Source of the DNA: Calditrichia bacterium
GTDB lineage: Bacteria > Calditrichota > Calditrichia > RBG-13-44-9 > J075
Direction of reading: 5' to 3'
Assembly: GCA_050633245.1 (NCBI GenBank)
Contig: JBOEGD010000022.1
Span: forward strand, 32,001-96,000
Length of the DNA stretch: 64,000 bases
The notes beneath the pieces were generated by a model. The model ran no database searches. It saw nothing but the letters and a program-made list of their open reading frames with translations, and had not been told where the DNA came from. The position numbers were made by a program, and so were the translations under genes. Positions 12,409 to 64,000 of this stretch are shown here, in pieces; positions within the stretch are counted from its first letter, which is position 1, and every line of letters begins with the position of its first letter.

Positions 12409-12423
12409 TGGCATGTGGTTTGT
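12409..12423 (+). promoter_or_regulatory. Putative sigma54 (-24/-12) promoter of the Hsp20 operon
   Basis: TGGCAT-N5-TTGT about 95 nt before the ATG; palindromic GCCAAAATGGC-like sites upstream at 12241-12320. Confidence 0.55.
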
Positions 12424-26104: not shown

Positions 26105-26119
26105 ACAAGTTGTATGCCA
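26105..26119 (-). promoter_or_regulatory. Putative sigma54 promoter of the DUF1800-DUF1501 operon
   Basis: Minus strand TGGCAT-ACAAC-TTGT about 37 nt upstream of the ATG. Confidence 0.5.
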
Positions 26120-50508: not shown

Positions 50509-50628
50509 TTGAATAAACCCGGTATCTGAACAGGAAAAACAATCACCTTGGAAAGAAATCGGGGATTCGATATATTTTGCTTCCTTAGTGCCGTATTCAA
50601 AAACATCTGTTTAGTGGAGACATATAAT

Positions 50629-53600
50629 ATGGGACGTTTGTCCATCCTGCTTTTGCTATTGCCTTTTTGGGCCGTGGCTCAAGATCACCTGCTTATTTCT
50701 GAAGTTGTTGTCACACCGACTATCGGTGAATATGTCGAGATCCATAATCCGACTGCTTCCGCCATTGATTTGACGGATTATTATCTTACCGACGCAACGT
50801 TCGCAACCAACTCAGCTTATTACTACAACATTGTGACTGGTGCTGATGCCGGTGGTGGAACGTTTGGCGACTGGCTGGCTCGTTTTCCTGCCGGTGCATC
50901 CATACCCGCTGGTGCTTATCAGACGATTGCAATGAATGGGGCTGATTTTCAGACGGCCTATGGACAATCTCCTACCTACGAATTGTTTGATGTCTCTTCA
51001 GCAGCTGATATGCTTGAAGGTTTACCGGGTTCGGTAAATAGTCAGGGTGGGTTGACCAATAGCGGTGAAGTCGCGATACTTTTTCAGTGGGATGGCGTTA
51101 GTGATCTGGTTGCTGATGTCGACTATGTCGTTTGGGGAGATAAAGTTGAGGGTGTCGACAAAACGGGTGTTTCTATTGACGGCCCGGATGCCGATTCCGA
51201 TGTTTCAACGTATCTAGATGATGTTTCCATTGCCAATCAAATTGCAACCTCTGGTGGTCAGCCGCATAACGATGGTGAGTCTATTCAGCGTTTTGCAGCG
51301 ACAGAAACTGACGAAATTACATCCGGTGGAAACGGAATTACCGGTAACAATGAGATGAGCGAGAATCTTGGTTCCTCCTTTATAACCGCGGTAGTAACAC
51401 CTAATGCCGGGCCGCCTGCTTCAGATGCTCCGCAGATTAACAATGTGATGCGCAGTCCGGCTAATCCCAGCACCGAAGATGTCGTCACAATTACTGCTAC
51501 GGTTACCGATGATGTGAGTCTTGTCAGCACCCGACTATTTACTTCTATTGCCGGTGCGGCTTTTGACAGCACCGATATGGCGAACACCAGTGGCGATGAA
51601 TTCAGCGCAATGATTCCGATTCAAGCCGAAGGCGTAGAAGTTCAGTATTTTATAAAAGCACGAGATGGTGATAATCTTACTTCTTTGTCTGCAACAACCG
51701 CCTATACCGTTATCGCACCACTACAGGTGGTGCCGATTGCCGACATTCAGGCCAACCCTGGCAATTTTACCACTGTTCTTGTTGAAGCTATTGTTACTGT
51801 TGGTGCCGGGCGATTGATAACAACTCGAACGGATACCTATGTTCAGGATGCCTCCGGCCGTGGTATTAACGTATTCAGTTTTGATGAGCCAACCGTTCCA
51901 CCGAATGATTTGCTGGTGCGTGGGAATGCGGTACGCGTTACCGGAACGGTGGAAGAGTTCAACGGTATTACCGAGATTACCAACTATACGATTGAAGTAA
52001 CCTCTACCGGGAATGCAGTTCCGGACGCGCTGGTGCTTACTACTCAGGCAGCAGGGAACACCGCTCTTGAAGGAACACTGATTGAAACATCCGGATCAAT
52101 AACCGATATTTCTGCGTTTGCCGATGCTGCAAACATTACTATCGATGATGGCAGCGGCAGTGTAACGGTACGCGTTTGGGCAACAACCGGCATTGATGTA
52201 ACAGGCTTGGCTGTGAATGATGAAATTACCGTTCGCGCAGTCATGGATTTATTTAACGATACGGCGCAGTTGGTGCCCGCATATAATGATGACCTGCAGG
52301 TTGCCGGACAGAATCCCGGCGATGGCAGCGGTAGCGCTTCTATAACACCGGATAGTGTTGCTACGTCAGAAGCGACCTCAGCAATGGTTAGCATTAATGG
52401 TGAAGGAATGTTTTCGTTGGAAAGCGTTTCCGTACGCGTTCCGCAGAGTTGGAGCTGGACCAATAGCGTCGGAGATGTCCAGCTTGCTGGCAGTGGGTTT
52501 TCCGGTGCAACAGTTGACGTGCTTGGCAGTGTGATTAGCATTAGCGGAGCATCGGTGACAGATCTTTCTGCCGGGACGATTACGATTAATAGTTTAACTG
52601 CACCTGCAACAGACGAGACGTCTGAATTTCAGGTTCGCACCGCGACTGCAGGGGGTACGCTAATTTCAATATCAGCTTCTCCCAAAATAATCGTTGGTGC
52701 CGGTGGCTTACCGTCTACGCCAATTGCCGATATTCAGGCAAACCCGAGTGGTTTTTCAACAGTGACAATTCAGGGTGTGGTTACTCAGGGCGCCGGTGTA
52801 ACGATCGGAACACGAACCGATGCTTATGTTCAGGACGCCTCAGGACGTGGTATTAACGTGTTTAGCTTTGATGAGCCGACAATTCCGCCAAATGACTTGT
52901 TGGTACGAGGAAATGTCCTTCGACTTACCGGAACGATCGAAGAATTTAATGGCGTTACTGAGTTGACAAATTATTCTGCCGAATTAGTTTCCACCGGTAA
53001 TCCAATTGTAGATCCTCTGGTGATTTCGACGCAAATTGCCGGTGATGTTACACTGGAAGGAACCTACGTTCAGGTCACCGGAATTGTGAACGATATTGTC
53101 CCTGGTTTGGGTGGCGGAACCAATATTGACCTGAATGACGGCAGCGGAGAAGTAACCATCCGCGTTTGGGATGCGACCAATATTAATCTGGCATTTATCT
53201 CACAAGATGATACTATCACCGTCCGCGGTGTGATCGACATCTTCGATAACGATACGCAGGTATCGCCTGGCTATCAGGATGAAATTACAATTTTTGGAAG
53301 TGGCTCTGCGGGTGACGGTAGCGGTTTCGCATCGATCTCTCCAGACACAGCAAGTATTGATGCTGCTCTTGATGTTACCCTGAAGATTTGGGGCAATTTG
53401 TCCGATACGCTTGAAACGGCGAAGATCACTGTGCCGTACAATTGGGCATGGAGTGGGCAGGAAAGTGCGGTAACGGTTACTGGTAGTGGTGCTGCCGGTG
53501 CTTCTGTTCAAATTCTTCGCGAATTCGATGAGCTGTTTGTTGAAATCTCCGGAGCAGCTATTACCGGACAAGATACAGCTTATGTCGCGATCTCCGGGCT

Positions 53601-54648
53601 TACCGCCCCAGATCTATCTGTTTACTCGTATTTTTGGATTCGTACTGCGTCAGCCGGTGGAACCCCTTTCTTTATTGCAGAAAGTCCTCGCATTCAAGTT
53701 GGCAATGAACCGATTCATCAAATGCGCGATATTCAAACCTACTCCGCTCAGTTTACGGGGGACGTTACCTTGCGTGGTGTTGTCACTATTGCCGATAACG
53801 TCATCCGAACAGATCGCACTTCAGCATATTTTCAAGACTTTTCCGGCTTTGGAATTAATATTAACGATGGTCAGGCACCGGGTGGACGTTTTCCGCGTGG
53901 TGCTGGAATTGAGATAACGGGTGGTATTTCTGTCTTTGGAGAAACGACACAGATTGCACCGAGCACGGTTACGAGTATTACCGGACTTCCTGATATTACA
54001 CCTATTTCGCTTTCATCTGGCGATGCTGCAAGTCCACGTTATGATGGAACGCTTATTGAAGTCTCCGGTGTGGTAGTTGATAAGTTTACGACCTCGAGTA
54101 TTCCGCCACTGGATTTTAACGTTGTGTTGAATGATGGAACCGGTGAGTTGACGGCACGAATTTGGTCTACTACCGGAATTAATCTGGATTCAATAAACGT
54201 CAATGATGCAGCAATTATCAGCGGTATTGGCGATGTGTTTGTCAATAATAGCGGCGTGCGTAGCTATCAGGTGGTGCCGGGATATCAGGATCAACTGGCA
54301 CTCGATCCGAACTTTCAGCCGACATTGGCTGGAGTTAGCCTTAGCACGCCACCAAATCCATTTGTACCGACCCTTGGTGAAACGATCGACATTTCCTATA
54401 ATGCCGGATCTGTTGCAAACCGAACTGTGGTGCGAATTTTTGACCTGGGTGGACGATTAGTAACAACGCTTCTCGACGAAGAGGCCTCTCTGATTCAGAA
54501 TGTTTTGGAATGGGATGGTCGGGATCGCTTTTTTAATCGCGTGCCGCTTGGTGCCTACATTTGTCATCTGGAAGTCGTTGAGCCGGTAACCGGTAAAAAA
54601 GAGCAGCGTACTGCCCCGATTGTTGTTGGTACAGTGCTGAGTCGTTAG
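50629..54648 (+). CDS. Large secreted protein: lamin-tail domain, Ig-like domains, three tandem double-OB-fold modules, FlgD/T9SS type B-like CTD
   Basis: LLISEV...EYVEIHNPT..AIDLTDYYL (LTD); repeated PIADIQ...YVQDASGRGINVF...GTVEEFNG.TE and EGT...DDGSG.VTVRVW; CTD PNPFVP...RIFDLGGRLV...WDGRD...GAY. GGAG RBS. Confidence 0.82.
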   Translation: MGRLSILLLLLPFWAVAQDHLLISEVVVTPTIGEYVEIHNPTASAIDLTDYYLTDATFATNSAYYYNIVTGADAGGGTFGDWLARFPAGASIPAGAYQTIAMNGADFQTAYGQSPTYELFDVSSAADMLEGLPGSVNSQGGLTNSGEVAILFQWDGVSDLVADVDYVVWGDKVEGVDKTGVSIDGPDADSDVSTYLDDVSIANQIATSGGQPHNDGESIQRFAATETDEITSGGNGITGNNEMSENLGSSFITAVVTPNAGPPASDAPQINNVMRSPANPSTEDVVTITATVTDDVSLVSTRLFTSIAGAAFDSTDMANTSGDEFSAMIPIQAEGVEVQYFIKARDGDNLTSLSATTAYTVIAPLQVVPIADIQANPGNFTTVLVEAIVTVGAGRLITTRTDTYVQDASGRGINVFSFDEPTVPPNDLLVRGNAVRVTGTVEEFNGITEITNYTIEVTSTGNAVPDALVLTTQAAGNTALEGTLIETSGSITDISAFADAANITIDDGSGSVTVRVWATTGIDVTGLAVNDEITVRAVMDLFNDTAQLVPAYNDDLQVAGQNPGDGSGSASITPDSVATSEATSAMVSINGEGMFSLESVSVRVPQSWSWTNSVGDVQLAGSGFSGATVDVLGSVISISGASVTDLSAGTITINSLTAPATDETSEFQVRTATAGGTLISISASPKIIVGAGGLPSTPIADIQANPSGFSTVTIQGVVTQGAGVTIGTRTDAYVQDASGRGINVFSFDEPTIPPNDLLVRGNVLRLTGTIEEFNGVTELTNYSAELVSTGNPIVDPLVISTQIAGDVTLEGTYVQVTGIVNDIVPGLGGGTNIDLNDGSGEVTIRVWDATNINLAFISQDDTITVRGVIDIFDNDTQVSPGYQDEITIFGSGSAGDGSGFASISPDTASIDAALDVTLKIWGNLSDTLETAKITVPYNWAWSGQESAVTVTGSGAAGASVQILREFDELFVEISGAAITGQDTAYVAISGLTAPDLSVYSYFWIRTASAGGTPFFIAESPRIQVGNEPIHQMRDIQTYSAQFTGDVTLRGVVTIADNVIRTDRTSAYFQDFSGFGININDGQAPGGRFPRGAGIEITGGISVFGETTQIAPSTVTSITGLPDITPISLSSGDAASPRYDGTLIEVSGVVVDKFTTSSIPPLDFNVVLNDGTGELTARIWSTTGINLDSINVNDAAIISGIGDVFVNNSGVRSYQVVPGYQDQLALDPNFQPTLAGVSLSTPPNPFVPTLGETIDISYNAGSVANRTVVRIFDLGGRLVTTLLDEEASLIQNVLEWDGRDRFFNRVPLGAYICHLEVVEPVTGKKEQRTAPIVVGTVLSR

Positions 54649-54759
54649 AAGCTAGAGGTAAGAGGCAAGACGTGACCCCGCGTCAGGCTGAGCGAAGGCG
54701 AAGCCAGAGCGACGAAAAAAGAAAATATCTGTTAACGATCTATAAAAGGACGAAAGTCG

Positions 54760-55656
54760 ATGAAAAAAGCCGAAACCACTTATTTGCGGAGAATCCTATT
54801 AAGCTGCAGCATTTTGCTGATGCTTTCTCTGCAGATCCAGGCTGGACTATTTGATGACCGCTACCCAAGCGCCCGCGCGATGGGAATGGGCGGATCGGGT
54901 GTTGCAGATGCTCATGGTGTCTGGTCTGCCTACTACAACCCTGCCAGTCTTAGTCGTCAGGATAACCTTCAGCTTGGTAGCGCCTATACGCGTCCATTCA
55001 ATCAGAAGTTCTTTCGCAACTTCTTTGGTGGTGGTGCAGCTGCAATCAACCCTCGATTTGGTGGCGTTGCCGTAGCTTTCGAATACTTCGGTGTTGATAA
55101 TCAGAGTCAAAACCTGTCCGGCGAATATACTTTGGCGCTGTCCCACGGCTTTCATCTCTTAAAGGATGTGCACAGCTCTCTATCGTTTGGCTATTCGTTG
55201 AAAGGTTACCATTACTCCCTGGGAACGTCGGTTGATGGCCTTGAGTTGGGAAGCACGACAACGTTGGGTGTCGATATGGGATTCCAGGCTTCGATCTTTG
55301 GGCGCACGCATATTGGTGTTTATTTGCTGAACATGAACTCACCACAAATCGGTGAAGGCAGCAAAGAAGAATTACCGCAGCGCTTGATGGCAGGCATTTC
55401 CTACAAGCCGTATGATGGTGTTACAACCAGCCTGGATTTTAATCGACAGCTACAGTCTAACGACACGGAAGTTTGGGCAGGAGCAGAATTTCGCGTTTTC
55501 GACTATGTGTTGCTTCGCTTTGGCGGCACAAGTAACCCGAACCGCTTCTCAGCAGGAGTTGGACTCGATCTCCAGCAAATTTCAATTGATTACGGTATGC
55601 GAACGCATAGTGATCTTGGTGAAACGCATCTTATCGGATTAAGCTACGATTTCTAA
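54760..55656 (+). CDS. PorV/PorQ-like outer-membrane beta-barrel
   Basis: Signal peptide; SARAMGMGG and YYNPASL motifs; HSDLGETHLIGLSYDF C-terminus. Confidence 0.8.
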   Translation: MKKAETTYLRRILLSCSILLMLSLQIQAGLFDDRYPSARAMGMGGSGVADAHGVWSAYYNPASLSRQDNLQLGSAYTRPFNQKFFRNFFGGGAAAINPRFGGVAVAFEYFGVDNQSQNLSGEYTLALSHGFHLLKDVHSSLSFGYSLKGYHYSLGTSVDGLELGSTTTLGVDMGFQASIFGRTHIGVYLLNMNSPQIGEGSKEELPQRLMAGISYKPYDGVTTSLDFNRQLQSNDTEVWAGAEFRVFDYVLLRFGGTSNPNRFSAGVGLDLQQISIDYGMRTHSDLGETHLIGLSYDF

Positions 55657-55671
55657 AAAACCAATCGGACA

Positions 55672-58317
55672 ATGACCGAAATGAGTAAATTGAGACAAAA
55701 AAATATGAGTATCGCCCGGCAAAACGATCGCTTTGGTTTTATGCGTTCTCTGATTTGTGTGCTGCTGTGTGCCTTTTGCATAACCTCGCTTTATGCGCAG
55801 TCGGATTCTTATTCATCCGAAAATCAGCTCGACATCAACAATGCGACCTACGAGGAGATTGTAAAGCTGCCCGTGTCTCTGGCTATTGCCGAACGACTAT
55901 ATGAACGCATTCAGCGTAGCGGGCCGTTTACAAGTATCTTTGAGCTGCGTGAAATAGAAGGTATTAGTCAACGCGTTCTTTTGCGATTGAAACCGCTTGT
56001 TCGCATTGAGCCTTATGTCGCGCAAACCGAGCGAGAAAGTCGTATCGAAAACCTTTATGTAAAGCTGGATCGTTGGAGTGGCCGTGAAGGCACCAATCAG
56101 GCACTGGTAGACTCCTGGATTGAACAGGCACTTGAACCGGTAGATGTAAATACGATTAGCTTTGGTGAGCTACTGAATCTGCAGGGAGTTTCACCCGTAG
56201 ATGCCGCTGCAATTATCAATTATCGCAATGAAGTGGGTAAAATATCCAGTGCTCGCGATATGCGTAGTATTCCATACCTATCCTACTTTGGCTATCGCAA
56301 TGCCCGCGACTTCCTAAGCTTTAGCGAAAATCAGAAGAAGCGTGAGTTTCACGGTTCAATTCGCTTCCGGTCTACAAATACACCGTTCTTTAGCGAAGAA
56401 GCCGAAGCCGGTGAAGATCTGGATTTACCTGCCGGTCAGGCAAACGATTATCCCGATTATTACACTCGCTTTGTTGGTAATATTGGCTCTGATATCAAAA
56501 TTGGCTATTCATTCTGGCATGCGTTGGAAGAACCGGTTCTTAGCTACGACATCGCTGGTCTGGAAATTCCGCGTGCCAAATGGTATGTAGGTCTAGAAGA
56601 CAAGAGCTGGGGTGCACTAAAGCTCAAGAAATTTTATGTTGGAAACTACTCGCTGGCATTTGGCGAAGGAATCGTTATGGAAAACACCGATTTCTTTACA
56701 CCGCGTAAGACCGGCTTTGGCTTTCGTAAGCGTTTTATCGGCTTGTCTGGCGATAATTCCCGTACGCGTCAGTATAAACTGACCGGCGCAGCAGCACAGT
56801 TTGGAATCGGCAAAGCTCACTTGTATCTCTTTGGCTCCTTCGATCAACGCGATGCCATTCTTGGCCGCGAGCCGATTCTTGTCGGTGCTGAGGGCGAAGA
56901 AGAACTAATCAATCCGGTGAGCCATTTAATTGTGCTCGATCAGCGTTTCGAATATGCCCCTGATGACTCTGCCCGCATCCGCGCCGAGCTGCCGTGGCGA
57001 GATTCCGTGAAGGAATTGACCTATGGTTTTCACACTGCTTATGACATTCTGCCAACGACGCAGCTTGGCTTTACCTACTATGAGAGCGCTTACGACCGTC
57101 CGTTAAGACCGCCAACCACCGCCGAAGAAAGTGCCGACATTGTACTGCCTGCTGAAACACGCCAGATTGATTTCCCCGATAATGAAATCTTTAACTCTTA
57201 CGGCGGCCGCGTCTCTGATGGAGAGAATCCGTTCTGGAGTGAAGCAAAAGCTTTCCGTCGCGTCTATGGACTTGATTTCCGCTCGGTTTATGAGAATGTC
57301 TCTTTTCAAGCCGAATATGGAGAGCTTGATACCGGTGAAGGGCTTTCTCTTTTTGGAGCCAGTGGAGACAATCCCTGGGCCTTTACCGCCAGTGCCTATG
57401 TGCAGTACAATAATTTTAACTTCATGGGGCTGTATCGCAATTATCAGATAGGCTTCGACAATCCCTATCAGCGATCGTTCTCCAACTATCGCCGCTTTAA
57501 ACGCGGGGTATATGAAGACTATTTCTACCTGCAGTCCGGCCTGTATGGCCAGTTGTATTCAAACAATCCGCAGCCACAGGCCGAAGAAGGATTCTATTTT
57601 CTCACTCGCTATCAGGTGAACCGCAAAACCACACTGACTGTTGAATACGATAACTGGTTGCGCAATGCCGATGATGTGCCACAGTATCGCCTTCGTGGCA
57701 CTCTGCAATTCCGACCGATTTTCCCGATAGATATTTCGTTACGTCAGAAGTATCAGGGACGCGAAGTACAGAACAATCAAAGCATTGAATATTTTGAAAA
57801 TCTGGAGTTTCGCGGCCGGGTGCGCTTTCGCCTGTCCCGCTTTAATAGTCTGAGCATTGACTATGGAAGTAATGCTGTAAAATTCCGCCCACGTCCGCGC
57901 CTGTTTTTTGGTACGGAGCCGGGATCAGAAACCGGACAGGATAACCTGGCTGGAAATGCCGCTATTGACGGTGAATTTCTCGGTGGAAACTATACACACA
58001 ATTTTAATGAATGGCTGAAAGTTAGTGGTGGACTCGTCTACTATCGCGGCTTTTACTGGACCTTTGAAGATACCCAATTCCTGGTGCTCGACAGCGATCG
58101 CGGTGCCATGCGATATTGGACCTCCTTCTATTCGCGTATCAGTAACCAGCTAAGCATGCGTTTAAAGTATTCACGTGATCGTCAGGCCGTTGGAACGTTT
58201 GCACAAACACGCGAGACGAATAATGATCCGGTTATTGAACCCGGCGTTGCCACAGAAGCCGACTACATTCAGGGTAAACAAGATGTCTTTTATCTCGAGC
58301 TTAATTACAATTTCTAA
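55672..58317 (+). CDS. ComEA-like helix-hairpin-helix domains fused to an outer-membrane beta-barrel
   Basis: Two HhH blocks (LDINNATYEE...GPFTSIFELREIEGIS and VDVNT.SFGELLNLQGVS...IINYRN..GKI); aromatic-rich barrel ending LNYNF. Start may be 55741. Confidence 0.82.
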   Translation: MTEMSKLRQKNMSIARQNDRFGFMRSLICVLLCAFCITSLYAQSDSYSSENQLDINNATYEEIVKLPVSLAIAERLYERIQRSGPFTSIFELREIEGISQRVLLRLKPLVRIEPYVAQTERESRIENLYVKLDRWSGREGTNQALVDSWIEQALEPVDVNTISFGELLNLQGVSPVDAAAIINYRNEVGKISSARDMRSIPYLSYFGYRNARDFLSFSENQKKREFHGSIRFRSTNTPFFSEEAEAGEDLDLPAGQANDYPDYYTRFVGNIGSDIKIGYSFWHALEEPVLSYDIAGLEIPRAKWYVGLEDKSWGALKLKKFYVGNYSLAFGEGIVMENTDFFTPRKTGFGFRKRFIGLSGDNSRTRQYKLTGAAAQFGIGKAHLYLFGSFDQRDAILGREPILVGAEGEEELINPVSHLIVLDQRFEYAPDDSARIRAELPWRDSVKELTYGFHTAYDILPTTQLGFTYYESAYDRPLRPPTTAEESADIVLPAETRQIDFPDNEIFNSYGGRVSDGENPFWSEAKAFRRVYGLDFRSVYENVSFQAEYGELDTGEGLSLFGASGDNPWAFTASAYVQYNNFNFMGLYRNYQIGFDNPYQRSFSNYRRFKRGVYEDYFYLQSGLYGQLYSNNPQPQAEEGFYFLTRYQVNRKTTLTVEYDNWLRNADDVPQYRLRGTLQFRPIFPIDISLRQKYQGREVQNNQSIEYFENLEFRGRVRFRLSRFNSLSIDYGSNAVKFRPRPRLFFGTEPGSETGQDNLAGNAAIDGEFLGGNYTHNFNEWLKVSGGLVYYRGFYWTFEDTQFLVLDSDRGAMRYWTSFYSRISNQLSMRLKYSRDRQAVGTFAQTRETNNDPVIEPGVATEADYIQGKQDVFYLELNYNF

Positions 58318-58333
58318 TCAGGAGACGGCTACT

Positions 58334-59608
58334 ATGCGTCATATCCTTTGCGCCTTTATTTGTTTAACTGTGCTGTCGCTAAGCAGCATTGCGCAAAACC
58401 TCACTGCTTTTCCGGTGGGAGAAAACTGGCAGTTTACCGATGCGCGTACGCTCGGTATGGCTGGAAGCGGCTCCGTCTCCAACAGTGGTGCCGGTGCGTT
58501 GCTTATGAACCCTGCAGCTTTGGGGCGTGGAAGCGGCAGAATGGAACTGTCTGTTTCAACGACTTTACGCAATATGGAAGAGCGGCGCTCATTCCCGGTG
58601 TTTAACCGCATTGATGATGTTACGACTAAAGGAATCTATGCGATAAACGATAACTGGTATGTACAGCCTCAGGGTGGTGCGCGTTATAATTTGAATCTTT
58701 CTGCGGTGCCGTTCCTGAAAGCCTTTGCGTTCGGAACCTATAATGAAGTAGATCAGGATTACAAATATCTGGAAGAAGTTCGCAGCCGGGATTTTAACGG
58801 AGAACGCTCTCCGTTGGCTTACAATCAGATTCAGTTTGAAGGCGATCTGACACGCTATAGTTTTGGAACAGCGCTTGGGCTTGGCAGCAAGCTCGATTTT
58901 GGCTTTCAATTAGGTTTCTTGAATGGCGATCTGGAGTCCAGCTCATCCGTTGACTTTCAGGCGGAAGAAAATCAGGCGAACAGCTTTCGCATACAGAACT
59001 TTCGTTCGTTAGACAATACGCCGTTGGTTGTCTCTGCTGGTGCAATTGTAGACGTTTCTCCGCAGCTGACGCTTGGTAGTCACGTTCGGCTTCCCTACAA
59101 GGTTGAATATGCCGTTTCTGTAGAAGGAACGGATGGCAGCACACCTGAGAGCTACGAATACCCGATGGCAATAAATGTCGGCATGGAATACCGCGGTCGT
59201 CAAGAGCTTCAATCCAGCCTGAATGTAGATTTCAGCTATGAGCTGTGGAGTGAAACAGAATCAACTAAAGATGGCGTTGTTTTACCTAATTTGCTGGATG
59301 ATGTCGTTACACTAAAAGGTGGAATTGAGCATATCTTCTACAATCAAATTCCACTACAGTTTGGATTACAATACCGCACCGCTTTGCAGGATCGACGTAG
59401 TAGTCGCACGCTGTTTTCTATAGGAAGTGGCTATGTAACCAAGCAGTGGCAAGTGGATGGCGCACTTGGCTTTAGCAAGCTCAGTTATACCGCTGAGGAT
59501 TTATTCGATGATGCGCTGTTTGGCGGGGATCGATCTGGTAGCCCAATCGATGATGTTGAAGAACGTTATGTCTACGGCATTATTACGCTGAAGATAAACT
59601 TCGAATAA
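58334..59608 (+). CDS. FadL/OmpP1-like outer-membrane beta-barrel
   Basis: Signal peptide from ATG 58334 (GGAG RBS); ARTLGMAG and MNPAALG motifs; beta-strand pattern. Confidence 0.72.
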   Translation: MRHILCAFICLTVLSLSSIAQNLTAFPVGENWQFTDARTLGMAGSGSVSNSGAGALLMNPAALGRGSGRMELSVSTTLRNMEERRSFPVFNRIDDVTTKGIYAINDNWYVQPQGGARYNLNLSAVPFLKAFAFGTYNEVDQDYKYLEEVRSRDFNGERSPLAYNQIQFEGDLTRYSFGTALGLGSKLDFGFQLGFLNGDLESSSSVDFQAEENQANSFRIQNFRSLDNTPLVVSAGAIVDVSPQLTLGSHVRLPYKVEYAVSVEGTDGSTPESYEYPMAINVGMEYRGRQELQSSLNVDFSYELWSETESTKDGVVLPNLLDDVVTLKGGIEHIFYNQIPLQFGLQYRTALQDRRSSRTLFSIGSGYVTKQWQVDGALGFSKLSYTAEDLFDDALFGGDRSGSPIDDVEERYVYGIITLKINFE

Positions 59609-59821
59609 TCTGTATTTATTTTGGTCGGGCGGTTTTTAAGCCTCCGCCTGGCCTGTGGCATATGCCCCAAACCCTCCTTCTTTTTGTGCTATAATCCCCA
59701 TTTCCGCTATTCTCTTCATCTCTTCCTGTTGCTGTGTGTTTTGTTTGCTGCCCTTGTTTTTATTGGGTTTAGGGTTGGCAAACCTGCCTTTTTGCTAATT
59801 GTTTTCTCTCTTTTCCCGAAT

Positions 59822-59836
59822 TGGCACAGGAATTGA
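59822..59836 (+). promoter_or_regulatory. Putative sigma54 promoter upstream of the tandem hairpins
   Basis: TGGCAC-AGGAA-TTGA; no protein-coding gene follows on this strand. Confidence 0.5.
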
Positions 59837-59860
59837 AATATATCTGGGCAGTTCATTGAA

Positions 59861-59967
59861 AGACAAGTTTCTACCTCGGCACGTTACTGCGAAAATGAAG
59901 GCAAGCTGAATGGGGCGCAGTAGTTTTGATTTTTGATTGTGTAACGTGTCGTGGCAGGAACTTCTCT
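59861..59967 (+). ncRNA. Candidate structured sRNA, copy 1
   Basis: Stem aagtttctacctcggcacgttac/gtaacgtgtcgtggcaggaactt with G-U pairs on the + strand; apical 24-mer identical to copy 2. Confidence 0.65.
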
Positions 59968-59987
59968 TGGAGATTCCAAAAGATTTT

Positions 59988-60093
59988 GCAGGAAATTCTA
60001 TCATGACACGTTTCTGATGGGTAGAGTTGGTTCAAGCTGAATGGGGCGCAGTAGTTCTGGCTTCCAGATGGACGTGTCATGATGGAAACCTGC
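59988..60093 (+). ncRNA. Candidate structured sRNA, copy 2
   Basis: Stem gcagg..ttctatcatgacacgt/acgtgtcatgatggaa.cctgc; apical CAAGCTGAATGGGGCGCAGTAGTT. Confidence 0.65.
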
Positions 60094-60101
60094 TTAATTG
60101 C

Positions 60102-60144
60102 AAAAAGAAACGCCATTGGTTCGGGTTGAGCCAATGGCGTTTCT
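60102..60144 (-). terminator. Rho-independent terminator of the SH3 lipoprotein gene
   Basis: agaaacgccattggttc/gagccaatggcgtttct stem with a U tract on the minus strand. Confidence 0.8.
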
Positions 60145-60166
60145 GCGTTCTATAATTTTTAAAGCT

Positions 60167-60928
60167 TTATTCTTCTGTGGGAAGGATGTACCAAACGCTG
60201 GAGAAATATTTGCTATCCCATTCCTTGCGCTCAAGATCGACTGAAATATTAGTCAGTAGGGTTCCACTATTCCAAATGACATGACCGCTGTTATTTTCGC
60301 TGGGTTCCTGAGTAGTGAGCTCGCATTTCTTAAGACCAGCCTTATATCCATTAACCGGCTTGAAAAAATCTACGCGAACCCGATTTACTTTGTTTTTCAG
60401 CTTATCGATAAACAGCGTAATGCCGTGCTCAACCTTCTGCTGCGATTCTGTAACGACATCCAGAACAATAACCTCGTGGCTTCCCAATCCAATATCTTTA
60501 AAGAATAGCTCGTAGGAACCACTGGTTTCCTGTCGTTTGCTACCTTGCTGAGAAAATATGTTTTGGAAGAATTCTACCGACTTGAACTTTTCTTTCTTCT
60601 GGTCCAGATAGAAATTAGGGCCATATAAGTTCAGTGCCTCATAACCCACAGATGGTGCCCAAATATAGGCCTCTTTAAAGCGCTTGTTACTAAACTGAAC
60701 CCAGTTTCCTACTCTGCGCAGAACCGTGATCTCTGCATTTTTTCGAAGCGACCCAAGGCGCTTGCCGTTTGGCAGGGCGCGTACGTTTTCAGAATTGACC
60801 TGAACCATTACAGGACGCCCGGCATCTGTTGTAAGTGATTCAGTTGGCGAGGTTGTTGGTTTTGCCGTTTTGGGCTGGCAGCCTAATAGAAAGAATGTTG
60901 CTAATATCAAGAGTAGTTGCAGCTTCAT
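60167..60928 (-). CDS. Lipoprotein with bacterial SH3-like domain
   Basis: Lipobox LLGC; NVRALP.G..LGSL..N.EITVL...GNWVQ...AYIW. Confidence 0.72.
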   Translation of the reverse strand: MKLQLLLILATFFLLGCQPKTAKPTTSPTESLTTDAGRPVMVQVNSENVRALPNGKRLGSLRKNAEITVLRRVGNWVQFSNKRFKEAYIWAPSVGYEALNLYGPNFYLDQKKEKFKSVEFFQNIFSQQGSKRQETSGSYELFFKDIGLGSHEVIVLDVVTESQQKVEHGITLFIDKLKNKVNRVRVDFFKPVNGYKAGLKKCELTTQEPSENNSGHVIWNSGTLLTNISVDLERKEWDSKYFSSVWYILPTEE

Positions 60929-62527: not shown

Positions 62528-64000
62528 ATGGTTCTTCTCCGTGTTATCGCAATACTCTTGCTGTCGGGTTTGCTGTATGGACAAACGTCCCTGCCGGAGG
62601 ATGAGGTGATCGCTGTGCAGGCGGGTGATTATTTTAGCCGACTTCAGGAGCTAAGCGAAAACCCCCTTGATATGAATAAGGCCTCGGCAAGACAGCTTCG
62701 GGACATTCCCTTTTTGAATCGAAAACTTATTTCAGCTATACTGAATTATCGCCGTAAAACAGGGGAATTTCAAACCGTTGATGAGCTGCTTCGTATTAAT
62801 GGAGTCTCCGGTGAGCTATTGGAAGCGATGCGTGCCTACCTGCAAGTTGAAGCTAAACCGAGAGCGCTAAGGCTGGTTTATGACCAGCGCCTAGCCGCTA
62901 CGGCACATAAAACGCGTGCGTATGTAAGAGATCTATATGGCAGTCGCCTTGCAATAAGACAACGCTTTTTGCTGCAAATGGAGGATCGATTTAAGTTCAT
63001 TCTCCAAACGGAAAAAGACGCTGGCGAACCAAACTGGCGAGATCACGTTTCCGGCTCGGCAGCTATTGAGTTAAGACGGTTGCACAGCCATGTTGTTTTG
63101 GGTGATTATTATGCCTGGTTTGCACAAGGCTTGATCTCAGGTGGTGCTTATGGTAAACGCCTGACTGCAGGAAGTGGGCACTCTGCTTTGATTCCGGGCA
63201 TGCTTCGAGTGCGTCAAAAAACCGGAGCGGATGAGTTCGCTTTTTTACGCGGCATTAGTTGGCAAGTTCAACCAATCGAGCCGTTGCAGCTAACCACACT
63301 GGTTTCTGTTCGCAAGCTGGATGCTGTTTTGTCAGAAGACTCTCTTACTGTTTTGCGCTTGGTGAATACGGGATTTCATCGCAGTGAGAGTGAACTGGCG
63401 CGACGTAACAGTCAAAGGGAAAAACGTCTTGCATTAGCGGCCACGCTCAATTTAAAAGCCTTCTCTATTGGCGCGCTCTATCAAATAAATCAATATTTCA
63501 AAAAGCAACAGTTTACAGGCTTAACATCTGAAGGCGGATGGAGCGGTAGCATCGCATTTTCCTATCGAACTGAAAGTTGGAAGCAGTCGGTGGAACTTGC
63601 TCGGGGAATCCGAGGCAGAGCACTAATGGCAAGTGTTGTAACACAATCTATGGGAATGCGCTTTGGTGCCGGTGTTTTTTATTATTCTCCTCTTTTTATC
63701 TCTCCCCATGGTCGGCGTTTTGGTGCATTTGGACAATCACCTGCAAATCGCTTTGGTGTTCAGCTGTTACAAAATCTTATCCTGCCGGCAGCGCTTCGCG
63801 TTAGTATTCACCTCGAGGCCGGCAGGCCGGTACAGCCCGAAGTGGCATTTCCGATTACGTCCTGGGCAGCGAGTGCGTATGCAGAGCAACGCTTTAAGCG
63901 GATCGTCTGGAAATTGCGATATAGTCAGCGCTCTTCTGGAAATGAGGAGCTTCAGCGAGACAGGCTACCGGTTCGGCGTCGATTGCGTCTGGATTTGGAA
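62528..64000 (+). CDS. ComEA-like helix-hairpin-helix + outer-membrane barrel protein (runs off the window)
   Basis: Not in the ORF track. GGAGGA RBS; MVLLRVIAILL... signal; NPLDMNKAS...IPFL...ILNYRRKTGEFQTVDELLRINGVS, then EKDAGE, LGDY...FAQGL, FLRG and TGFHRSESE. Frame spot-checked, not read in full. Confidence 0.85.
   Translation, partial: MVLLRVIAILLLSGLLYGQTSLPEDEVIAVQAGDYFSRLQELSENPLDMNKASARQLRDIPFLNRKLISAILNYRRKTGEFQTVDELLRINGVSGELLEAMRAYLQVEAKPRALRLVYDQRLAATAHKTRAYVRDLYGSRLAIRQRFLLQMEDRFKFILQTEKDAGEPNWRDHVSGSAAIELRRLHSHVVLGDYYAWFAQGLISGGAYGKRLTAGSGHSALIPGMLRVRQKTGADEFAFLRGISWQVQPIEPLQLTTLVSVRKLDAVLSEDSLTVLRLVNTGFHRSESELARRNSQREKRLALAATLNLKAFSIGALYQINQYFKKQQFTGLTSEGGWSGSIAFSYRTESWKQSVELARGIRGRALMASVVTQSMGMRFGAGVFYYSPLFISPHGRRFGAFGQSPANRFGVQLLQNLILPAALRVSIHLEAGRPVQPEVAFPITSWAASAYAEQRFKRIVWKLRYSQRSSGNEELQRDRLPVRRRLRLDLE

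Follow-up and report, generated by a model that had tools for sequence, protein, structure and literature searches.

What is encoded between a gene for an outer-membrane protein and a convergent gene for an SH3-domain protein, where two long inverted repeats with an identical tip stand behind a sigma-54-like promoter motif? We studied this locus (positions 59822 to 60150) in a window of 64,000 nucleotides (nt), by which we mean the whole stretch of DNA that was analyzed, from contig JBOEGD010000022.1 (here C22) of a Calditrichia bacterium genome. A preliminary description had proposed that it specifies a new family of small RNAs (sRNAs). This proposal is supported, in that we found a single locus, no matching Rfam family, and an orthologous locus in a second lineage that keeps the sigma-54 motif, the apex, and both hairpins with compensatory changes. 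We conclude that the locus is very probably a genuine, well-delimited non-coding RNA gene of a new and narrowly distributed family, and we consider it likely that the RNA is functional. As judged from its sequence, a hairpin-borne 17-nt apex, present twice, is under selection here, and the parts of a transcription unit are present around it.

By direct reading and a repeat search, we found an exact 24-nt block, CAAGCTGAATGGGGCGCAGTAGTT, in two copies (59902-59925 and 60033-60056), and the repeat can be extended to 27 nt with one mismatch. With up to three mismatches allowed, the 17-nt apex core occurs at two sites in the window, compared to 0.21 expected from shuffles, and the 24-mer occurs at two sites in the entire genome (6.35 Mb in 59 contigs), both at the twin-hairpin locus. 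Each copy forms the tip of a long hairpin, and both hairpins (hp1 and hp2) fold better as RNA of the + strand than of the - strand, with values of -44.8 and -30.2 kcal/mol for hp1 and -49.0 and -34.7 kcal/mol for hp2. The 301-nt stretch as a whole folds at -128.2 kcal/mol (z -10.2) on the + strand compared to -93.0 kcal/mol on the - strand. When hp1 and hp2 were compared with RNAalifold, 26 consensus pairs were found, 4 of which had changed on both sides, including two C-G to U-A swaps and a G-U to A-U change. In the minimum free energy (MFE) fold of hp1, the apex forms the stem GCUG/CAGU and exposes the loop AAUGGGGCG.

A protein-anchored search with the SH3 gene identified an orthologous locus, L097, on a 1.05-Mb metagenome contig, with SH3 proteins that are 79% identical in the best tblastn segment. 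The order of elements in L097 matches that of the window: the end of the outer-membrane protein (OMP) gene, a spacer, the promoter TGGCACAGGAGTTGA, hp1, hp2, a terminator, and the convergent SH3 gene. A covariance model (CM) of the twin hairpins, R1, matched hp1 of L097 (4052-3939, - strand) with 78.8 bits and an E value of 4e-19 and hp2 (3937-3830, - strand) with 22.1 bits, while a four-copy model, R2, which was partly built from the latter sequence, gave it 76.4 bits. The SH3 genes have diverged to 73% nucleotide identity, with identical bases at 121 of 254 third codon positions (48%), and the spacers are 33 to 47% identical. Against this background, apex 1 is identical at 23 of 24 positions, the promoter block at 16 of 19, and the block around the first of two upstream dyads, which lies within the spacer, at 17 of 20, so we infer that the apex, promoter, and dyad are under selection. 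Apex 2 is identical at 19 of 24 positions, the hairpin arms are 44 to 71% identical, and the 17-nt apex core (AGCUGAAUGGGGCGCAG, or AGCTGAATGGGGCGCAG) is exact in all four copies, that is, in hp1 and hp2 of both the window and L097. The sole change in apex 1, CAGU to CAGC in the RNA (CAGT to CAGC in the DNA), turns a closing G-U pair into a G-C pair. The linker between the hairpins has 3 of 19 positions identical and 16 gap columns; the mini-hairpin that the preliminary description noted there is present in the window (59968-59980), but it is deleted in L097 and thus not conserved, and it is probably dispensable. This patchy pattern of conservation looks as expected of an sRNA gene.

To assess covariation, the four hairpins were aligned with MAFFT by sequence only, and the alignment was scored against a structure that we specified, consisting of a 16-pair basal stem and a 4-pair apex stem. 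In this alignment, 95% of the 80 cells were paired, compared to 85.7% in shuffles (0 of 500 reached the observed value), and both-side changes were seen in 8 of the 20 pairs (1 of 500 shuffles); controls with slid partners were 27 to 54% paired. Mapping hp1 through the MAFFT alignment to L097 kept 36 of its 41 pairs (25 the same, 7 with one-sided changes, and 4 with double changes), with 4 broken and 1 gapped. The sequence alignment of hp2 was poor, and a comparison guided by structure, with separate folds of the two orthologs so that pairing holds by construction, gave 14 pairs that were the same, 10 with one-sided changes, and 6 with double changes. The L097 hairpins also fold better on the sRNA strand (-54.4 compared to -29.2 kcal/mol for hp1 and -38.8 compared to -20.1 kcal/mol for hp2), so that in all four hairpins this strand is better by 14 to 25 kcal/mol, and the 291-nt stretch of L097 folds at -119.4 kcal/mol (z -8.7). 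The four hairpins contain 33 G-U pairs among 162 pairs, and this, together with the strand bias, argues for an RNA rather than a DNA palindrome. The claims of the preliminary description regarding the repeat at the hairpin tips, the compensated divergence of the outer stems with its named swaps, and the preference for the + strand therefore stood up to repeat search, alignment, and folding.

Differences among close strains were distributed unevenly across the locus. Contigs of four public runs cover it at 90 to 99% likeness, and close strains occur in contigs of runs labeled coral and marine metagenome. In strains X1 and X6, there are 16 differences in 309 nt of coding sequence (59300-59608) and at least 24, plus 2 indels, in the 181-nt spacer (59609-59789), compared to at most 11 substitutions and 1 deletion in the 364 nt from 59790 to 60153, the last count including one low-depth X6 contig. 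All 16 differences in the X6 spacer contig coincide with those of X1, and the two share the deletion, at 60099. Over the RNA, X4 has 9 differences in 358 nt and X5 has 8 in 249 nt.

The motif TGGCAC-N5-TTGA, 24 nt ahead of hp1, is the sole such match in the window (0.14 expected), and its -24/-12 geometry predicts a transcription start site (TSS) at about 59848. Its -24 element, TGGCAC, is perfect and its spacing is correct, with TTGA at -12 where the canonical form has TTGC. A genome census found 152 TGGCAY-N5-TTGN sites, 67 of them inside the non-coding 13% of the genome (crudely delimited), where they typically lie 35 to 100 nt before an open reading frame (ORF), in many cases next to a gene for an activator. 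In non-coding DNA, the -12 element may read TTGA, TTGT, or TTGC, while TTGG is nearly absent; of the 20 TGGCAC-N5-TTGA sites, 10 are intergenic, mostly 36 to 93 nt ahead of ORFs, compared to 3 of 36 for TTGG forms. Since TTGA is frequent at -12 in non-coding sites, this non-canonical form appears to be normal in the organism. The genome contains rpoN and 37 matches to Sigma54_activat (PF00158), 33 of them strong and none on the contig of the window. Both the motif and the lack of a coding sequence behind it had been part of the preliminary description, and we found the motif at the distance given there (about 25 nt) and a convergent gene as the next one downstream (60167-60928). A Bacteroidetes-type sigma-A promoter (TTG ... 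TATATCTG, by eye) was rejected because its spacing is wrong, and a sigma-70 promoter scan gave one site only, on the - strand. Two further sigma-54-like motifs in the window, TGGCATGTGGTTTGT at 12409-12423 (+) and TGGCATACAACTTGT at 26105-26119 (-), are intergenic and lie 95 and 36 nt before ORFs, respectively.

Upstream of the promoter are two candidate activator dyads (Table 1). The first, whose form in L097 is TGTGGCATATCCCACA, matches the TGT-N10-ACA form of NifA-type sites. The sequence CTGTGGCATAT occurs at four sites in the genome, two of which lie 169 and 175 nt ahead of a sigma-54 motif; these are the twin-hairpin locus and C14:173629, and at the latter, too, a second TGTGG site follows 30 bp after the first. 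The pattern TGTG..ATA..CCCCA is found in the genome only at the two dyad sites of the window, and no sigma-54 motif lies within 400 nt of any of the other 12 genomic TGTGGCATAT sites. The C14:173629 site lies directly after the gene for a 458-residue activator (L104 4245-5621; weak PAS_4, Sigma54_activat, and HTH_8) and before a gene for a 401-residue BON/OmpA protein. The activator reached no NCBIfam equivalog cut-off, and relatives match only the C-terminal OmpA domain of the BON/OmpA protein. The recurrence of the dyad at a matching distance from a sigma-54 motif, beside an activator gene, suggests that the twin-hairpin RNA and the C14 OmpA/BON promoter share one regulator. The surrounding cluster (C14:170400-175534; L104 2400-7534), which may be a sigma-54 module with an envelope-related role, has a LiaF-like gene upstream. 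It comprises genes for a Ras/Roc-like small GTPase, two coiled-coil proteins, and the activator; behind them are the two TGTGG dyads, the sigma-54 motif, and genes for the BON/OmpA protein and for a small membrane protein resembling LapA.

Table 1. Observed and predicted features of the twin-hairpin locus, in window coordinates
Feature	Position	Strand	Remarks
Candidate activator dyad 1, TGTGGCATATGCCCCA (TGT-N10-CCA)	59655..59670	+	Center ~160 bp upstream of -24; putative site of an enhancer-binding protein
Candidate activator dyad 2, TGTGCTATAATCCCCA (weaker)	59685..59700	+	30 bp after dyad 1; 11/16 identical to L097; putative
Sigma-54-type promoter, TGGCAC-N5-TTGA	59822..59836	+	Motif match; GG at -25/-24, GA at -13/-12
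Predicted primary transcript, ~300 nt	59848..60150	+	Predicted TSS from -24/-12 geometry, predicted 3' end from terminator
Hairpin 1 (hp1)	59860..59968	+	41 pairs, 6 G-U; MFE -44.8 kcal/mol, z -5.7
Apex 1, 24-nt block	59902..59925	+	Stem GCUG/CAGU; 9-nt loop AAUGGGGCG at 59909-59917
Linker mini-hairpin, TTGGA-GAT-TCCAA	59968..59980	+	Seen in window sequence
Hairpin 2 (hp2)	59988..60093	+	40 pairs, 8 G-U; MFE -49.0 kcal/mol, z -6.05
Apex 2, identical 24-nt block	60033..60056	+	Exact repeat; loop at 60040-60048
Bidirectional terminator hairpin, loop UCGGGUUGA	60106..60144		Inverted repeat, 17-bp stem; common to convergent gene 60167-60928

Taken together, these features suggest how the locus might work. 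An enhancer-binding protein on the pair of TGT-N10-MCA dyads about 160 bp upstream would activate RNA polymerase-sigma-54, and transcription would start near 59848 from TGGCAC-N5-TTGA. The best candidate for this activator is the PAS-like/AAA+/HTH_8 protein encoded at C14 (L104 4245-5621), which would also regulate the OmpA/BON envelope gene. The resulting independent transcript of about 300 nt would fold into two paralogous long hairpins and end at the terminator common to the convergent gene. Its working part would be the invariant apex, one per hairpin, whose exposed loop most likely pairs with C-rich CGCCCCAUU-like sites in target RNAs, and cleavage within the long stems could free the two redundant modules, in the manner of the sRNA NrsZ. 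Hfq (PF17209) had no match in this 97% complete genome, so any pairing would be Hfq independent, for example, by loop-loop kissing. We lean slightly toward this full account, base pairing by the apex included.

Several observations weigh against parts of this account. Transcription of 59848-60150 is predicted from sequence, and the -12 element of the promoter has GA where the canonical form is GC. On the + strand of the window, the terminator has only the poor tail TTTCTGCGTTCT, and a consensus terminator scan listed none there. The covariation rests on four sequences, two of them paralogs, which is too few for a formal test, because just two lineages (plus near-identical strains) carry the RNA. 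The preliminary description assigned the GCTG/CAGT apex stem-loop to both hairpins, and this holds for the free MFE fold of hp1 but not for that of hp2 (-49.0 kcal/mol), which takes another apex pairing and partly buries the apex; with GCUG/CAGU enforced, hp2 folds at -45.5 kcal/mol, so display of the loop appears sturdier in hp1 than in hp2. In addition, the sequence of the apex stem, GCUG/CAGY, is kept without covariation, which suits recognition by a protein as well as it suits a seed. A genome-wide search for the complement of the apex (15-mer, up to 2 mismatches) found 6 non-self sites compared to about 12 expected by chance, and 9- to 10-nt seeds near crude ORF starts gave 12 sites compared to about 7 by chance (both expectations are our own estimates), with no functional theme. 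The seed sites include that of an amidohydrolase gene, in which GCGCCCCAU comes after the Shine-Dalgarno sequence and before the AUG, and those of guaA and of a gene for a 1162-residue FlgD_ig protein. Finally, a single additional site in one genome underlies the assignment of the activator, and no full-length ortholog of the OmpA/BON gene is found in the family. We also considered, and rejected, the idea that the RNA soaks up other sRNAs of the sigma-54 type, since with four such candidates the duplex energies were not beyond those of shuffles (105 to 167 of 200 were at least as good).

The same target and apex data bear on the possibility that the RNA sequesters or recruits a protein, with its two identical apical stem-loops acting as binding sites in a CsrB-like decoy logic, for a protein other than CsrA and with no base pairing. 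The whole 17-nt apex, its 4-bp stem included, is invariant in all four copies and does not covary, each transcript would carry two copies, no complementary targets are enriched, and Hfq was not found, all of which fit protein binding, as does the apparent use by this genome of a sponge RNA for CsrA elsewhere. However, there is no candidate protein, the apex loops lack the GGA that CsrA needs, CsrA (encoded at C7:192407-192565) is already fitted by a separate RNA rich in ACAAGGAUGU, and two sites are few for a titrating sponge. We regard this explanation as unlikely. A more elaborate version is more doubtful still: an invariant, AUG-containing, G-rich apical stem-loop would capture an RNA-binding protein or a C-rich RNA in an Hfq-less bacterium, without being a base-pairing sRNA, and CsrA with its sponge would thus be joined by another sequestration circuit, induced along with OmpA/BON by a PAS-type sigma-54 activator under envelope or surface stress.

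The layout of the locus raises the question of whether it acts only in cis on its neighbor. The downstream gene (60167-60928) is convergent and encodes a 253-residue SH3_3 protein, with a sodium:solute symporter gene behind it. On the sRNA strand of L097, TTTTTT follows the stem of the terminator, and compared to the window, 11 terminator pairs are the same, 1 has a one-sided change, 7 have double changes, and none is broken. The terminator loop UCGGGUUGA is kept (window 60106-60144, L097 3827-3789) despite the 7 double-changed stem pairs, which is unusually strong conservation for a plain terminator. Action in cis could consist of transcriptional collision or insulation at the 3' end of the SH3-domain lipoprotein gene or of antisense pairing to its read-through, with the hairpins as stabilizers, and the convergent arrangement with its shared bidirectional terminator, kept in L097, agrees with this. 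It leaves unexplained why a 17-nt apex stays invariant in two paralogs and two lineages amid drifting stems, and the overlap with the SH3 gene is confined to the terminator; we consider it very unlikely that the locus acts in this way only.

Upstream of the locus, on the + strand, a 477-residue protein with weak PorV/BamG outer-membrane similarity is encoded by a gene that ends at 59608, preceded by genes for a 1366-residue LTD/OB-fold protein and an 881-residue protein with a ComEA-like HHH_3 motif. This run of large genes (50548-59608, +) also holds a 298-residue protein without a family, and a second HHH_3 protein is encoded at 62528-64000 (+); together, these genes possibly specify a surface apparatus for DNA binding or uptake. 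CHU_C/type IX secretion system (T9SS), DUF4301, and DUF5723 domains nearby suggest an organism like those of the Fibrobacteres-Chlorobi-Bacteroidetes group, and the genome has a G+C content of 45.3%.

We also asked how widely the RNA is distributed. A search of the whole window with Rfam 15 (4,227 models) gave no match at the gathering threshold, and between 59600 and 60200, at E values up to 10, it gave just three chance-level matches (E of 1.1 to 6.5, and 14 to 18 bits compared to gathering scores of 40 to 52). BLASTN found the twin-hairpin element in none of 40 relatives, R1 found it in none of 36 other genomes of the order, and R2 gave no significant match among 85 other genomes of the class; its 7 matches had E values of 0.15 to 0.84, and one of them, an apex-only match, sits within apparent coding sequence. 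The 17-mer with up to one mismatch had 3 matches in these 85 genomes, all within long ORFs, and 3 matches in viral contigs, of the motif only. Searches of L098, a metagenome relative at a greater distance, did not detect the twin-hairpin element either. A scan of genome contigs for the 17-mer ending in CAGT gave 57 matches, none with the same flanks, and a 19-mer scan of metagenome contigs gave none, although variants with CAGC, as in L097, would escape both scans. As far as was searched, the RNA appears to be confined to the source genome, L097, and close strains. Of 15 family genomes, 14 have an ortholog of the SH3 gene and 14 have one of the OMP gene. In the other family genera examined, the SH3-symporter pair and the OMP gene are present but do not adjoin, and no similar element stands next to either; the RNA thus sits at a synteny junction. 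Up to 1.5 kb downstream of the family SH3 and OMP orthologs, we found no sigma-54 motif, and the few ATGGGG/TGGGGYG matches there (2 SH3-side and 3 OMP-side loci) have no relation to the apex. In two relatives, G010 (L063 ~1100-1500) and G013 (L067 ~1180-1500), a near-perfect giant palindrome of 300 to 400 nt, unrelated in sequence to the sRNA, occupies the position of the sRNA downstream of the SH3 gene; these palindromes, with folds of -160.6 and -121.9 kcal/mol, respectively, are possibly a mobile element of the inverted-repeat type.

Two long, imperfect inverted repeats that stand between genes where synteny breaks could also be a DNA-level element, either a palindrome pair serving as protein-binding or recombination sites or a remnant of a mobile element, such as a repetitive extragenic palindrome (REP), a miniature inverted-repeat transposable element (MITE), an insertion sequence end, or an attC-like site. 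The CMs found nothing in the source genome except the twin hairpins and their reverse strand, and a single locus in 6.35 Mb, with no matches in the relatives or in the order and class genomes searched and only the 17-mer in viral contigs, argues against a REP or MITE. The preliminary description had named dispersed copies, along with a known Rfam family, as findings that would speak against an sRNA; the genome has two copies, both at this locus, and no Rfam family matched at its gathering score or with an E value below 1. A DNA element would also leave the strand asymmetry unexplained, since each of the 33 G-U pairs corresponds to an A-C mismatch in the opposite strand, and it would not be expected to have a conserved promoter in front, a terminator behind, and its best-kept part at the apex instead of the hairpin base. 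We regard it as highly improbable. We put as little weight on a transcribed but functionless recent duplication, in which gene conversion keeps the apices identical. The narrow distribution would suit it, and conversion could yield identical 24-mers in one genome, but the duplication is older than the split from L097, because hp1 and hp2 have separate orthologs there, and the 17-nt core is identical across paralogs and lineages though nearby third codon positions are 48% identical. Small peptides translated from the loop AUG (AUGGGGCGCAG = MGRS...) are barely credible: an AUG is present in every apex loop of the four hairpins, with AAGG 8 nt upstream in hp1, but the four frames run for 8, 13, 27, and 18 residues with only MGRS in common, the sequence is equally invariant on both sides of the AUG, the hp2 copies have no Shine-Dalgarno-like sequence, and the changes are compensatory in stems, not synonymous in codons.

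By kind, the RNA would be a sigma-54-dependent modular sRNA, with NrsZ as its nearest known counterpart, and by the defining features that we tested, it appears to be a new family and no member of NrsZ, Qrr, or CsrB. As described for NrsZ of Pseudomonas aeruginosa (PMC4253122), that RNA has an RpoN promoter, lies between tail-to-tail genes after ntrC, and consists of three stem-loops with identical loops (motif ACAGGCAG / GUACAGGCAGGC) and spacer stem-loops between them; it is processed into modules, and one module suffices, its loop pairing with a 5' untranslated region. The twin-hairpin locus is similar in having an RpoN-type promoter motif (here, the motif alone) directly upstream, an intergenic position between tail-to-tail genes, and repeated stem-loops that expose an identical loop in one transcript with a spacer stem-loop between modules, the two-hairpin form being present in L097 as well. 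It differs in its modules (two, of about 105 nt, compared to three that are short), in its loop (AAUGGGGCG compared to ACAGGCAG, with no sequence or model similarity and no Rfam match), and in its location, which is not beside ntrC but after a PorV/BamG-like gene on a contig, C22, without PF00158. The Qrr RNAs are Hfq dependent and are made from separate genes of about 100 nt, unlike the two modules of one transcript found here, in a genome where Hfq was not found, and the locus has no Rfam match. The likeness to Vibrio Qrr1-5 (PMC3730234) lies in the combination of sigma-54 and a dedicated activator with sRNAs that share a conserved pairing region in several copies. As in CsrB, RsmY, and RsmZ, repeated stem-loops show one motif, and CsrA is present in the genome; unlike in CsrB and RsmZ, the apex loops have no GGA, and another genomic RNA preceded by a sigma-54 motif fits the sponge role. 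GlmY/GlmZ and Pxr are sRNAs with sigma-54-dependent promoters as well; their structures are unrelated to the twin hairpins, and Rfam indicates no homology.

The RNA that fits the sponge role is at C14:90675-91105 (+; L133 ~176-606), where TGGCACATTCATTGC precedes about 400 nt that contain about a dozen ACAAGGAUGU / ACAGGGAUGU / CAAGGACGU repeats of the CsrA-binding motif type and end in a terminator hairpin; this RNA has no Rfam match at E values up to 0.1 and looks like a sigma-54-driven CsrB/RsmZ-like sponge of a new family. At C4:103333 (-; L134), TGGCATGACAATTGA precedes about 110 nt with the C-rich loops CUUCCCCUGAG and UUUCCCCCCCGAAA and a strong terminator. This sRNA candidate has no Rfam match, and its duplex with the twin-hairpin apex is not beyond shuffles. 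Sigma-54 motifs at C18:87655 (-), C2:59706 (+), and C2:61620 (+) are likewise followed by ORF-less stretches, without an Rfam match, that end in terminator-like hairpins; the C18 motif is divergent from an activator gene.

If transcribed as predicted, the locus would be a cleanly delimited new sRNA family, consisting of an enhancer site, a sigma-54 promoter, two modules, and a terminator, in a poorly studied, T9SS-bearing lineage without detected Hfq. Since sigma-54-dependent sRNAs with repeated modules are already established, the gain is one of breadth and not a new principle. The genome has 33 strong matches to sigma-54 activators and several more sigma-54 motifs before short, terminated, ORF-less stretches, one of which resembles a CsrA sponge, so this organism may route much of its sigma-54 signaling through small RNAs, and the twin-hairpin locus offers a concrete pair of a candidate activator site and its RNA output.

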